DNA of 55,868 nucleotides from a virus (Duplodnaviria > Caudoviricetes), in IMG/VR virus record IMGVR_UViG_3300009081_000016, positions 1 through 55,868 of that record; one strand, 5' to 3'. The first letter of the stretch is position 1, and every line of letters starts with the position of its first letter. Shown here piece after piece: positions 15,681-23,031 of the stretch. A program made the position numbers and the translations under genes. Below the pieces are notes generated by a model, which was given only the letters and a program-made list of their open reading frames with translations, had not been told where the DNA came from and did not search any database.

Positions 15681-15683
15681 GAG

Positions 15684-15778
15684 AACGGGAGGCGGGATTC
15701 GAACCCGCACGCACCATGATCAGTACAGAGGGGAAACGAAGAAAACCCTCTCGCGTCTACCATTTCCGCCACTCCCGT
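15684..15778 (-). tRNA. tRNA-Leu-like (class II) element with aberrant 15-nt anticodon loop; no encoded CCA
   Basis: ACGGGAG-TG-GCGGAAATGGTAGACGC-G-AGAGG[gttttcttcgtttcc]CCTCT-long variable arm-GCGGG TTCGAAT CCCGC-CTCCCGT-T. Confidence 0.8.
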
Positions 15779-18659: not shown

Positions 18660-18946
18660 GAGACTCTTGTAAGATCTCCCTGTGAGGAGACATTCCAAAC
18701 GGGATCGGCGCTGTTGGACGCCAAAAAGTTGTAGCCCGATTCCATTGTCCGAAGGATACTAACCATTTCGGGACGTGCCTTGCTTAAGGAACTCCTTTCA
18801 TACCACAACGTAGAACACCCGAAGTATTCCACCTCTTCGGAGGGGGGAACTCCCAAAATCTTTTGGGCTATCCATGAGTGAAAGAGGCGCAGGGTAATGT
18901 TGAAGAATCCTCGGTGGCTTGTTATGGCAACCAATTCGTAAGTCAT
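18656..18946 (-). CDS. Hypothetical early protein
   Basis: ATGA-coupled at both ends. Confidence 0.65.
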   Translation of the reverse strand: MTYELVAITSHRGFFNITLRLFHSWIAQKILGVPPSEEVEYFGCSTLWYERSSLSKARPEMVSILRTMESGYNFLASNSADPVWNVSSQGDLTRVS

Positions 18947-19359
18947 AGAGACGTCCCTTCCTTCGTCGGCGAAGAAAACTTTGAATCGCCGTCACAAATG
19001 TCGAGTAGAACACGCAGTTGCAAATTGGGGCGGTCACTCTCATATACCACAATCGGAACCTCAGACCAGTGGACATCGTCGGCGTCCCAATACCGCCGAG
19101 TGGTTCCCTCAACTTCCTGGAGGTATAGGGTATGGGTGTAGCGGGACATTGATATACCGCTTACCCGGAAACCCGCCTCCGTAGCCTTCTTATATAGGTA
19201 CTCAATCTGTCGGCATACGGTATGGTCTTCGTACGACTTCTCGTTTAACCTCCCGGCCAAGATAATCGCGTCCGGATCAGATCGGCAAGTGTACTCCTCC
19301 AAATCTCCAGGGATGCTGTACACGTTACGACCTCGGGCCTCGAACTTTTGATTGGACAT
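18943..19359 (-). CDS. Hypothetical early protein (downstream of hammerhead 1)
   Basis: TTAGGAGG RBS before ATG. Confidence 0.75.
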   Translation of the reverse strand: MSNQKFEARGRNVYSIPGDLEEYTCRSDPDAIILAGRLNEKSYEDHTVCRQIEYLYKKATEAGFRVSGISMSRYTHTLYLQEVEGTTRRYWDADDVHWSEVPIVVYESDRPNLQLRVLLDICDGDSKFSSPTKEGTSL

Positions 19360-19384
19360 AATAGAATCCTCCTAAAGTGTTCCC

Positions 19385-19463
19385 TGGCTTGCCATCATCG
19401 GTGCCTACGTAGCCAACGTAGACAGAAGAAAGAGGTGGTCACGGCACCTCTTTCGTTTCGGCA
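19385..19463 (-). ncRNA. Type II hammerhead ribozyme with pseudoknot (HHR-1)
   Basis: tgcc GAAA c gaaagaggtg-loop-cacctctttc t TC | tgtctacgt tggct acgtaggca CCGATGA t ggca agcca; loop I tggct pairs with 3' tail agcca. Confidence 0.85.
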
Positions 19464-19484
19464 TAGGGGAGGAAGAGAAAAGGA

Positions 19485-19799
19485 TCAGTCGGCGTTTGCC
19501 TTCAGTTCCTTGCGGTATTCCCGCACCTCGCGGACGGTGTCGGAAAGATAGGCAATCACGACCTTCGCGGACTGGTGCATCCGGCACTCGTTGCGCTTCG
19601 CATGAAACTTGATGGCCTTCTTCCAGTCGCCGGAATCAACCAAGCCGATTTCCGCCTTGTCCAGCGGATAGCGGTCTACCAGCTTGACGCGTTCGACGTT
19701 CTTTTCGGCTTTGGCTTTCTTCTTGGCTTTCTTCTTGCCGCCGTTGGAGGTTTCGTCTTCTTCGTGACGATGCTTTTTCGCTACTTTGATTTTCGCCAT
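19485..19799 (-). CDS. Small Lys-rich basic protein
   Basis: MAKIKVAKK...KKKAKKKAK; GGGAG before ATG 19799. Confidence 0.75.
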   Translation of the reverse strand: MAKIKVAKKHRHEEDETSNGGKKKAKKKAKAEKNVERVKLVDRYPLDKAEIGLVDSGDWKKAIKFHAKRNECRMHQSAKVVIAYLSDTVREVREYRKELKANAD

Positions 19800-19856
19800 G
19801 ATCGGATCTCCCATGATTTGGGTTTGTGGTTTTCCGTAATAACGGAGGGTATTGTT

Positions 19857-20276
19857 TTAGGCGTGCAACAGACCACCGCCAGTAGCGGCAGTATCAGACA
19901 TAACTTCAGGTATCTTGATCGCGACCTCCTTCGGAGAGGCCTGAACCTTCCAAGTGAGCAGACCCCAAACGGAGAGTTCGCTGCCTTCTGTCTCGGACGT
20001 TACCTGAATTCCGTAGGCTTCGGCCACCGTGGCCGCAGGATCAAAACCTGTGTATTCGTGCTCGATTGCCTTGCGGATCTTGGTGGAACTGAGCGAAGTA
20101 GGAATGCCTTCGTGGCCCTCGATCGTGGATGTAAAACCGCTTATCAGTTCCTTAAACGTAAGATCGGCATCGAGCGAAACAGAGAATAGCGATTCTCCCG
20201 GTCGGTTGTGGTGGTCGGTAAGATTATCGGCCCCACAAACGTCAATTTGTTTGAATGAACAGCCATAGGTTGGCAT
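19857..20276 (-). CDS. Hypothetical early protein
   Basis: CCTTAGGAGGACTT-ATG leader. Confidence 0.75.
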   Translation of the reverse strand: MPTYGCSFKQIDVCGADNLTDHHNRPGESLFSVSLDADLTFKELISGFTSTIEGHEGIPTSLSSTKIRKAIEHEYTGFDPAATVAEAYGIQVTSETEGSELSVWGLLTWKVQASPKEVAIKIPEVMSDTAATGGGLLHA

Positions 20277-20300
20277 AAGTCCTCCTAAGGATTGTTAAAC

Positions 20301-20714
20301 CTAAATCACAGTTCGCGGGTGTATCAGGTGATTGTCTTGGATCTGGTGGTGGAGAAACACTGTGTGAGAACCGTCTCCGGTAATAGGGAGGTAGATGTCC
20401 AACGAGTCCATGGAAGCATCCATTTCGTCGGTGTATCGATAGTAGTCCAGATCCCGAAACGACCCTCCCCACTCGAGCATAAGTTCGGAAGTGTTTTGCG
20501 AGTGCAGATAGACACGAACCAATTCTCCCAAACAAGTAACGGTCAGCTGGTAGGCGGAATCCCAAACTTGCATAATAAAACCGTTGGGGGAGCGTCCAGT
20601 GAGCGGCAAATTAATCACCCGCAAAGCGGGGGAGAAGGATCCATGAGTGAACGATCGTTTCAGAATCTTCTTGAAATCGTTCACCGTCTTGGGTTTGGGC
20701 AGTACCTTAATCAT
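20301..20714 (-). CDS. Hypothetical early protein
   Basis: AAAGGAG RBS; ATGA coupling. Confidence 0.7.
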   Translation of the reverse strand: MIKVLPKPKTVNDFKKILKRSFTHGSFSPALRVINLPLTGRSPNGFIMQVWDSAYQLTVTCLGELVRVYLHSQNTSELMLEWGGSFRDLDYYRYTDEMDASMDSLDIYLPITGDGSHTVFLHHQIQDNHLIHPRTVI

Positions 20715-21295
20715 CGGTAGCTCCTTTCAACAAAGGAAACAAAGCCGAAGAAGAAAACGACGTCCTCCGTCGGTTCCTTATCGTTTGGATCGTCTTTCGC
20801 CAACAGAACCTGCCCAACGTTTGGATCGAGTGCCAACCAATCGGTAATGGCGTGTTCCGCCTCATCCAATTCGATCCCTGCCTCCAGAGCAGAAACCATC
20901 AACGCATCGTTATTGGAGAGAAGCGATTCTACCATCTCTCGTTGCGTGGTATTATTGTTCAGATAGATGAAACTGAATCCAGGGAGTTCTACCGAAGGAA
21001 ACTGCGAGATGGGGCTAATCCCCAGCGTAACGAAGACAACCCTTCGGGGAGGTCTCCCGAAGATAATTGGTTTCGTACCATCGCAGAGGTTGTTTCCGAT
21101 GATCGAAAGGTTGCATAAATAATTGGTAACGGTTTTGAAGGATGGGTCGTTACGGATGACCCGGTCTTCCTCAACGTAGACTATGTTCGGTTCGCTATCT
21201 TGGGGGAGGTCCCCCAAAACATAACCACCAATCTCTGGTCTCCACAAGCAGCCATTCTCGGTCAACCAGTTTTTTACTTGTCGGGAAGTAAGCAT
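20711..21295 (-). CDS. Hypothetical early protein (downstream of hammerhead 2)
   Basis: TTAGGAGG RBS; first gene after the large non-coding region. Confidence 0.75.
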   Translation of the reverse strand: MLTSRQVKNWLTENGCLWRPEIGGYVLGDLPQDSEPNIVYVEEDRVIRNDPSFKTVTNYLCNLSIIGNNLCDGTKPIIFGRPPRRVVFVTLGISPISQFPSVELPGFSFIYLNNNTTQREMVESLLSNNDALMVSALEAGIELDEAEHAITDWLALDPNVGQVLLAKDDPNDKEPTEDVVFFFGFVSFVERSYR

Positions 21296-21326
21296 GACAG
21301 AATCCTCCTAAGGAGTTGAAACCGTG

Positions 21327-21405
21327 GGCTTGTCATCATCGGTGTGTAGGGAGCCACCCTAACACAGAACGCCAGGTTGCGGGAACAATACCTGGCGTTT
21401 TCGAC
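21327..21405 (-). ncRNA. Type II hammerhead ribozyme with pseudoknot (HHR-2)
   Basis: gtc GAAA acgccaggt-loop-acctggcgt TC | tgtgt(t)aggg tggct ccctacaca CCGATGA t gac aagcc. Confidence 0.88.
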
Positions 21406-22020
21406 GTCGAAAAGGTAGCGGCCGACATCTCGCTTCCGGTCGTGGGCTGATTACCTGTGAACTCCAGTTTTAAACCAGAACAAACCGTTTTCTGAACAGA
21501 CCTTTCGCGTCCCATTGAATTCGCCCACTCCCTCCGCAAGTTTCTCAACTTGGGGTCGGCTAATGAGGGCATGAGAAAGAGCAAGGCGTGGTTTTCGCGA
21601 TAACCGCGAGAGACGCTACCGGGATTCAGCGGCACAGACGGGGGTCCCTTTCCAAAGGGGGTCAACCGTCGTCATGTCAGAGAACCGTAACCTTTACGCA
21701 TTCAATTTACAAAGAAAAAACCGCTTTCGCAAGAACTTTCTGGGGTTTCTTAGGGCTACTAAGTTAAGCAAAACCGGAAACTTAGGGGTAAAAGCACCTG
21801 AAAAGGAGAGGCGTAACAACCCCCCTTTGGGCCCCTTTTCGGGGGGTATTAAGTTACGCAAAAAAAGAAAGTTAGCCAAAATCGTCCTTTAAAGCCTCTT
21901 CAGGGCGTCCCCAGCTGGGGGGGTATAAAACCCCTAACGGCCGGAATACCCCCCGTAGACGACCCCCCAGGAGGGTAAAACCCCCGATAACGGGGTCTTC
22001 ATGAAGTAAAACGTCTGAAA

Positions 22021-22108
22021 AGGGGGGGTTGCTCACCCCCCTATAATATGTATTATCTATTATATAGAGTTATACATATTTAAGAATAGCTAACGCTATT
22101 CTTAAATA
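22021..22108. other. Candidate replication origin: AT-rich tract with tandem inverted repeats
   Basis: Perfect 14-bp IR tatttaagaatagc-taac-gctattcttaaata (22077-22108), aatatgtat/atacatatt IR, agggggg/cccccct; immediately downstream of primase. Confidence 0.5.
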
Positions 22109-22119
22109 GCTCTCGCGTC

Positions 22120-23031
22120 TTACGACGGCGAGAGCCTAAGACGAAGAGAGGAAATTCTGGAAAGGGTTTTAGCCGAAGAAATTTGTGTAACGAGTTGTGC
22201 TATATCCGAACTTCCGGGATCCTTTCCTGGGCATTCCGCGATACGTACAGAAGAGGCTCCTCGATTCTTAAGTTGTTCTCCCAACCAAATAGAGTCTCTA
22301 AGAGCATCTTGGTCCAAGCAGATAATAAATTCTTTTCTGGGAAAAGTGGAAACCAGAAGATCCAACTGTGCCCCACTGGGTCTCTTCCCTAAAAGACCCA
22401 CAAAGTGGGGGAACACACAATCGAAGGCTCCTTCCACTAAAACCGGAACAAGCGGGTGTAGATACACAGCTGCCTGTAGATTATAAAGCGCTCGATCCTT
22501 GCTCATCTTGGGGTTTAGGTACTTTGGTTCAAGACCGGATACAATGGATCGGGCGGTGTGATAAACCAAATTATTCTGGTCATCGAAGCAGGGGAGTATA
22601 ACACGGTTGTACAATCGGCGATTGAACGAATACCCAACCCTCCGATCAGCGATCATCTCGTCTGTCCACCCCCGAATGTGCAGATAGTTCCGAACTCGCT
22701 CTGCATATCGTAACTCCCCCTCTTTCTGCTTCCCCAATTCGGTAAAGCCTGCTATTGCTACGTCTGGTGATGTCTCTTTCGTTTCTTGTTGCCGAGTTTT
22801 TTCGTGGACATAGATGCTGCCGTCGTATTCCCGGAGCATCTTAGAAAGCGTTGTAGAGTATCCACAACGGAAACAATGGCACACGCCTAAGTCATCATTT
22901 ATAGAAAGGTGGAAACTCGTATCGGGGCTAAGACCCCTAAGAGTACAGAATGGGCAGCTAACGCCATACTCTGTTCCATTCTTCCCGCTACTCTCCTTAT
23001 ACATCCCAAACTTTCTGAGATATTCCTTCAC
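22120..23031 (-). CDS. DNA primase (CHC2 zinc finger + TOPRIM)
   Basis: CPFC...H...CHCFRCG, RVILP, PKYLNP, VLVEGAFD, CLDQD. Confidence 0.93.
   Translation of the reverse strand: MKEYLRKFGMYKESSGKNGTEYGVSCPFCTLRGLSPDTSFHLSINDDLGVCHCFRCGYSTTLSKMLREYDGSIYVHEKTRQQETKETSPDVAIAGFTELGKQKEGELRYAERVRNYLHIRGWTDEMIADRRVGYSFNRRLYNRVILPCFDDQNNLVYHTARSIVSGLEPKYLNPKMSKDRALYNLQAAVYLHPLVPVLVEGAFDCVFPHFVGLLGKRPSGAQLDLLVSTFPRKEFIICLDQDALRDSIWLGEQLKNRGASSVRIAECPGKDPGSSDIAQLVTQISSAKTLSRISSLRLRLSPS

Follow-up and report, generated by a model that had tools for sequence, protein, structure and literature searches.

The locus described here raises the question of whether a phage genome carries a hammerhead ribozyme that still cuts itself with a C in the turn of its core, and what such an element would do for the genes that follow it. 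The window, i.e., the whole stretch of DNA that was analyzed (55,868 nucleotides), is a complete phage record with terminal repeats, and nearly all of its long ORFs lie on the minus strand. A preliminary description had proposed a hammerhead (HHR-2) with a CCGAUGA core followed by U, a UGGCU loop, an AAGCC tail, a UUC site and a GUC/GAC stem. All of these parts were found, on the minus strand, where the element is read from 21405 down to 21327. As presented in Table 1, a second copy (HHR-1) lies further along the same strand.

Table 1. Position and anatomy of the two hammerheads and of the genes that they bracket (positions are those of the window).
Feature	Position	Strand	Remarks
HHR-2, complete type II hammerhead	21405..21327	minus	R1 match 21324-21408; parsed by the same grammar as the relatives
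HHR-2 stem II, 3' strand GUC	21405-21403	minus	pairs with GAC 21334-21332; stem II open
HHR-2 core G12 A13 A14 and A15.1 (GAAA)	21402..21399	minus	invariant in alignments A2, A3 and A4
HHR-2 stem III hairpin	21399..21368	minus	A15.1-U16.1, A15.2-U16.2, then 7 G/C-rich pairs; loop of about 14 nt
HHR-2 C17 of the UUC site	21367	minus	predicted cut 21367/21366, from the position in the model alignment and geometry
HHR-2 stem I hairpin	21366..21343	minus	9 pairs and one bulged U; loop UGGCU at 21356-21352
HHR-2 core C3-A9, CCGAUGA	21342..21336	minus	variant C4 = 21341; extra U after A9 = 21335
HHR-2 tail AAGCC	21331-21327	minus	AGCC (21330-21327) complementary to loop I GGCU (21355-21352)
Shine-Dalgarno 13-mer; ATG of the 194-aa ORF	21311-21299; 21295-21293	minus	directly follow HHR-2; ORF 20711..21295
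Block of four small ORFs (194, 137, 139 and 109 aa)	21295..19485	minus	bracketed by both hammerheads
HHR-1, second type II hammerhead	19462..19386	minus	R1 match 19383-19465; C17 = 19425, C4 = 19400

In both copies, parsing gave the three-helix layout of the type II hammerhead, in which loops close stems I and III and stem II is open. The core letters C3, G5, A6, G8, A9, G12, A13, A14, the A15.1-U16.1 pair and H17 (not G) are all present in HHR-2 and in HHR-1, and 12 of the 13 core positions are intact in each. The exception is position 4, where the U of the CUGA turn is absent and both copies have a C. The cut after C21367 that had been proposed earlier is placed as hammerhead geometry predicts, and cleavage there is itself a prediction. 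The UGGCU of loop I and the AAGCC tail had both been noted before, but their complementarity had not been connected; in HHR-2, GGCU of the loop and AGCC of the tail form a predicted pseudoknot. In the minimum-energy fold, all three helices are present in HHR-1; in HHR-2, stems I and III are formed and stem II gives way to a helix of 5 pairs that takes up G12 and core letters. This alternative helix joins CGUCG (21406-21402, including G12) to CGAUG of the core (21341-21337), with C4 paired to G12. Such a helix would be inactive, and it would be slightly stronger with C4 than with U4.

A search for the heptamer CCGATGA alone gave no signal, with 8 matches in the window against 8.8 expected. We do not rely on it, and used a covariance model (R1) built from 24 canonical U4 hammerheads of other phage contigs, without any sequence of the window. 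Both strands of the 55,868 bases were searched with this model, with its filters switched off. HHR-2 was matched with 58.1 bits (E 4.9e-12) and HHR-1 with 54.3 bits (E 4e-11). These were the only two elements matched by R1 in the window, the third-best hit having an E-value of 1.2. With Rfam, the whole window gave 0 matches at the gathering level (cut-off of 37 bits for Hammerhead_II), and even with E-values up to 10 allowed, no hammerhead was reported for 21200-21550, for the whole record or for pieces of 97 and 95 nt. Since the independent R1 model finds both copies, this Rfam null in the window was not read as absence.

Relatives were fished with a pattern that combined the loop and the tail with the core heptamer, in which position 4 could be C or U. 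Because this pattern was taken from the window, the letters of these three parts are shared with the relatives by construction, and the GAAA, stems I, II and III and the cut site lie outside the pattern. At least 119 viral-contig stretches matched, with at least 124 pattern matches; among the matches listed, 39 of 124 (36 distinct) also have the GAAA, the matching stem II strand and stems III and I. Rfam RF02276 (Hammerhead_II) gave 15 matches in 11 of the 14 relative loci tested and none at the two loci of the window. Six of these 15 matches reached the 37-bit cut-off, including one C4 copy at 38.7 bits, and nine were below it. At E up to 10, RF02276 did not match two canonical relatives with full architecture (L007 and L011) or a C4 copy (L032). 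The Rfam Hammerhead_II model under-reports this phage subfamily.

The alignment of the 24 U4 relatives was paired in 95.6% of its cells, and 15 of 22 pairs change on both sides. None of 500 shuffles reached its share paired or its covariation score and 5 of 500 reached its count of double-change pairs, and slid controls of the same alignment paired in 31-43% of cells. Overall, this sequence comparison confirms that HHR-2 and HHR-1 are real type II hammerheads, members of a known family with an uncommon C4/UUC core. Loop I and the tail change together in the relatives, as seen at L195:1501-1572 (minus strand) and in rows of alignment A4 (GGCU/AGCC, GGUU/AACC, GGUC/GACC, GGCC/GGCC, GAUC/GAUC, GGGG/CCCC and a pairing of 7 nt, UUGAGCA/UGCUCAA), and this covariation supports the putative pseudoknot independently of the fishing pattern.

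Covariation of HHR-2 with HHR-1, also claimed in the preliminary description, held when the two copies were compared pair by pair. Across the 18 modelled pairs, 8 are identical, 2 are changed on one side and 8 are changed on both sides. Seven of the 8 double-changed pairs are a standard pair in both copies, and the eighth lies at the bulged U of HHR-2; one of the two single-side changes is a C/U mismatch of HHR-1 (C15.2/U16.2). Stem II is GUC/GAC in HHR-2 versus GCC/GGC in HHR-1, with a middle pair of U-A versus C-G. Core, loop and tail are unchanged, with 23 of 23 aligned columns identical between the two copies, and loop I GGCU and tail AGCC are complementary in both. HHR-1 begins 22 nt past the stop of the 109-aa ORF, and 27 nt lie between its end and the start codon (ATG) of a 138-aa ORF. 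After each hammerhead stands an identical 13-nt ribosome-binding stretch, which occurs exactly twice on the minus strand. A comparison of the two proteins encoded downstream of HHR-2 and HHR-1 found no relationship between them. The reading that fits best is that HHR-1 and HHR-2 are old paralogs derived from a single leader cassette.

In both window copies, U4 is replaced by C4 and the GUC site by UUC, and we analyzed how rare these states are. Among the matches listed, 52 distinct pattern-fished viral-contig copies had C4 in 4, U4 in 48 and UUC in 1. A second sample, free of selection on the core, consisted of 65 copies that the model detected in five other phage records; here U4 was present in 65/65, and C4 and UUC in 0/65 each. 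In the same 65 copies, position 7, which is free in hammerheads, was U in 46 and C in 19, and the site was GUC in 64. With A or G at position 4, the pattern was matched 3 times, in no case with the hammerhead architecture. A scan of metagenome contigs for C4 gave 50 matches, 14 of them with full architecture, some duplicating the viral ones; in bacterial genomes, 0 of 39 C4 matches had full architecture.

The C4 set that was retained contains 15 copies, the 2 of the window and 13 on other contigs, and comes from the window and at least eight other lineages. When aligned to R1, a procedure that favours pairing, the 15 copies were paired in 94.1% of cells, with both sides changed at 15 of 18 pairs; 0 of 500 shuffles reached these values, and slid controls paired in 34-48% of cells. 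None of the 12 remaining core letters is changed in any of these copies. Since the copies, from multiple lineages, retain the fold, we conclude that selection maintains their structure. The complete phage G003 has one C4 and one U4 hammerhead, and C4 copies therefore sit among working relatives. It had been stated previously that the U4C variant is maintained, and sequence comparison bears this out: both diverged copies of the window have C4, and the 13 further copies keep the fold. C4 thus looks retained, not freshly broken. C4 copies were also observed on four short metagenome contigs (L212, L220, L226 and L227), which have nearly the same stem I (one G-U swap in L226) and stems III that differ but still pair, and which differ in their downstream sequences and genes. 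Judged by sequence, these four form a second lineage with several C4 paralogs.

Taken together, our best explanation is that HHR-2 and HHR-1 are self-cutting type II ribozymes that release a four-gene mRNA and are slowed by C4 and UUC, a reading to which we give a probability of roughly 0.6. Self-cleavage of the window hammerheads, at a slower rate than in the U4 relatives, is in our judgment somewhat probable. Both hammerheads would be transcribed within a long minus-strand message, and the RNA would fold as three helices around the core, with loop I paired to the 3' tail. It would then cut itself after C21367 in HHR-2, and after C19425 in the case of HHR-1. Cleavage would leave the upstream RNA with the stem III hairpin and a 2',3'-cyclic phosphate at its end, and the downstream mRNA would start at 21366, about 45 nt before the Shine-Dalgarno sequence, with a 5'-OH and the stem I hairpin/pseudoknot. 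In bacterial mRNA, hairpin-type end structures slow exonucleases and 5'-end-dependent decay, and the structures at both product ends may do the same here. The nuclease-resistant 5'-OH end proposed in the preliminary description is a prediction of this kind. As a pair, HHR-2 and HHR-1 would release the block of four small ORFs as its own mRNA, with stability and translation uncoupled from those of its neighbours.

With a C4 core and a UUC site, cleavage is probably slower than in the canonical relatives, since published changes at U4 lower activity, but it would not be nil. Against high activity we counted C4 in the CUGA turn, the extra mismatch of HHR-1, the rarity of UUC and the alternative stem II fold of HHR-2; for activity, the 12 intact core letters in the 15 C4 copies, the pseudoknot scaffold and the precedent of a working viroid U4C hammerhead. 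The evidence from public runs consists of assembled contigs, which show neither RNA ends nor joints and cover parts of the stretch. An RNA-library contig (X11, 21204-21586) runs unbroken over the HHR-2 cut site, and this is weak evidence because contigs show no ends and the library may contain DNA. A further contig from an RNA library ends near 19408-19412; it falls 12-16 nt short of the end predicted for the HHR-1 product, and we give it no weight.

The same facts bear on a different reading, in which both elements are hammerhead-derived structured 5' leaders whose fold is kept and whose cutting is lost or barely left, and which would, for example, insulate translation or bind a factor. C4 breaks the U-turn consensus and published mutants of the turn have low activity (PMC3088659; PMC9901934), a contig bridging the HHR-2 cut site is what such a leader would give, and a structural role would equally explain the conserved fold and the place before a ribosome-binding site. 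However, the 12 other core letters have no secondary-structure role and are nevertheless intact in the window copies and in the 13 other C4 copies, a phage with both C4 and U4 places the variant among working relatives, and a viroid hammerhead with U4C works in vivo (PMC3088659). We consider this reading rather unlikely, and the alternative that survives best.

C4 may also be regarded as a setting and not as damage. Recurrent U4C would then make cleavage slow or conditional, for example through pH via a protonated C or through a particular metal ion, as in the A6C phage variant, and would time the processing of the gene block during infection. This reading is allowed by the presence of C4 in both diverged copies and in at least eight other lineages with intact folds, one of them with several C4 paralogs, and by the finding of no A4 or G4 hammerhead among the matches scanned; we hold it as a tentative and unlikely idea.

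Decay offers a third alternative, in which the two elements lost activity via U4C and now drift as relics without a present function. Two rare states in both copies, an added mismatch in HHR-1 and an Rfam score below reporting would be expected of such relics. By contrast, 8 pairs have changed on both sides since the copies parted with pairing kept, drift would not have spared the core, loop and tail letters or the 13-nt ribosome-binding stretch, and the fold is also kept in the C4 copies of other lineages, all of which makes decay improbable. Finally, a reading without any ribozyme, in which the stem III hairpin and a U-rich tail are an intrinsic terminator and the remainder is chance, can point to the HHR-1 stem III flagged by a terminator scan (19454-19428, 10 pairs), to a weak likeness of the HHR-2 hairpin to sRNA terminators (Hrs12, 15.6 bits, E 1.6) and to a TTTT after the HHR-2 hairpin on the plus strand, but it is close to refuted by the E-values of the independent hammerhead model at both loci, the tails are weakly U-rich, and it leaves the conserved core, loop and tail unexplained. 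A plus-strand terminator was also considered and rejected, because no long plus-strand gene ends at the HHR sites.

Returning to the self-cutting ribozymes, we analyzed their placement ahead of genes. R1 found 23 (L315, G006:C1:1-14500; 14.5 kb), 16, 10, 8 and 8 copies in the five records L315-L319, where copies are spaced 240-1700 nt apart, about one before each small gene. With the two of the window, 64 of 67 copies have a Shine-Dalgarno sequence, a start codon and an ORF of at least 40 codons within 50 nt, both window copies among them, against 319 of 2000 positions drawn at random from the same strands. A looser measure, the distance to a start codon, was not discriminating (67/67 copies versus 69% of random positions). 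Multiple arrangements have been described, with tandem and triple ones tested (PMC3088659), and several hammerheads flank genes in prophages and cut during transcription (PMC3088659). It has been proposed that phages cut long messages into gene-sized mRNAs in this way, a purpose that the same literature still calls open (PMC3088659; PMC6765202; PMC7151607). The placement of the window hammerheads matches this published gene-flanking picture of prophages.

The preliminary description had also placed HHR-2 at the head of the early operon, as the start of the first early mRNA. Along the direction of transcription, the gene order is terminase, portal, head and tail genes, helicase, DnaB, primase, an 820-nt gap and HHR-2, followed by the four small ORFs, HHR-1, more small ORFs, thymidylate synthase, DNA polymerase, SSB and exonuclease. 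A scan of 19200-22300 for sigma-70-like promoters gave 0 sites, a weak result, since the consensus may not be that of the host. RNA-library contigs reach 21586 and 21697, 180-290 nt upstream of HHR-2. With replication genes on both sides of HHR-2 (primase, DnaB and helicase directly upstream), no promoter-like site and RNA contigs extending upstream, a position at the head of an early operon is not supported.

Several features were observed in the gap between primase and HHR-2. The part at 21409-22119 (minus strand) has no convincing gene, is rich in G- and C-runs and has a fold z-score of -3.0. On the minus strand, two G/C hairpins (22041-22018 and 21995-21977) are each followed by UUUU. A perfect 14-nt inverted repeat (22077-22108) lies just after the primase stop, and the gap also contains an A/T-rich stretch (22075-22042) and two 21-nt direct repeats (21832 and 21909). 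The gap could hold terminators, promoters or an origin, and because of its U-tailed hairpins and inverted repeat a new transcription unit could begin there.

As to the genes themselves, none of the four small ORFs matched a PHROG family, and a search for relatives of the 194-aa ORF found none. With 18900-22100 as the query, blastn likewise found no match in the phage collection. Relatives of the primase are only 25-30% identical, and in the one primase-relative record tested (G005) no hammerhead was found. Elsewhere in the window, ARAGORN reported a single tRNA-Glu (anticodon UUC) at 15683-15778 on the minus strand, which at 96 nt is unusually long for a tRNA. The region 19300-22200 was recovered as identical DNA contigs, with no variant letters, in freshwater-sediment and soil metagenome runs of several studies, and parts of it also in two wetland metatranscriptome runs (X9 and X11). 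Since identical contigs occur in the runs of several studies, this phage recurs across samples.

These results matter first for annotation, as the standard Rfam model overlooks two real ribozymes of a complete phage genome. Because Rfam misses the window copies and some canonical relatives, phage hammerheads are under-counted. Moreover, although U4C is regarded as crippling for the core, it has lasted here in two copies that diverged long ago, and it is met again in other phages, whose hammerheads keep their fold. The C4 copies are thus a natural test of how much core damage is tolerated, or exploited, by the pseudoknotted type II scaffold. One copy before each small gene also fits the long-standing proposal that messages are cut into gene-sized mRNAs.

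Among known systems, hammerheads with U4C have been described as rare natural variants, and the change "considerably decreases activity in vitro" (PMC3088659). This was the one source found on hammerheads with U4C, and its listings of core variants may already include C4 among the hammerheads of bacteria or phages. Low activity has also been reported for all single CUGA-turn mutants of a type III hammerhead (Roberts et al., 2023, PMC9901934). A viroid hammerhead with U4C is reported to have lowered activity in vitro yet enough in vivo (Ambros and Flores, 1998, as cited in PMC3088659) and shares this core substitution with the window copies; in contrast to them, it belongs to a viroid RNA that replicates via multimeric transcripts and not to the message of a DNA phage. 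The hammerhead of phage Bcep176 has an A6C core variant with low activity in the presence of Mg2+ that is retained in nature (PMC3088659; Naghdi et al., 2020, PMC7151607). Like the window copies, it is a natural single change of the CUGA turn in an intergenic phage hammerhead; it differs in the position changed (6 and not 4), and the Mn2+ shift was measured for A6C only.

Three type II hammerheads have been reported to cut in vivo, in work on Desulfovibrio vulgaris (Olzog et al., 2021, PMC8782182). They are of the same ribozyme type as the window copies and in a similar phage-like gene setting, and differ in having canonical predicted cores, measured activity and both product ends captured in vivo. 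Type II hammerheads with a pseudoknot between loop I and the 3' tail are a known family, which occurs commonly in phages (Perreault et al., 2011, PMC3088659; Rfam RF02276), in which the pseudoknot boosts activity and is needed for fast cleavage (PMC3088659). With this family the window copies share the open stem II, the GAAA, the A15.1-U16.1 pair and H17, as well as their occurrence in phages, where several copies flank genes. The extra U after A9, the UGGCU loop and the AAGCC tail are common to the window copies, the RF02276 consensus and the fished relatives. In contrast, the window copies have C4 and not U4, UUC and not GUC, and larger stem III loops, and, unlike most of the relatives tested, they are without an RF02276 match even at E up to 10. 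The kind of element is unchanged by these differences: it belongs to a known class and is ordinary within it, apart from its uncommon core.
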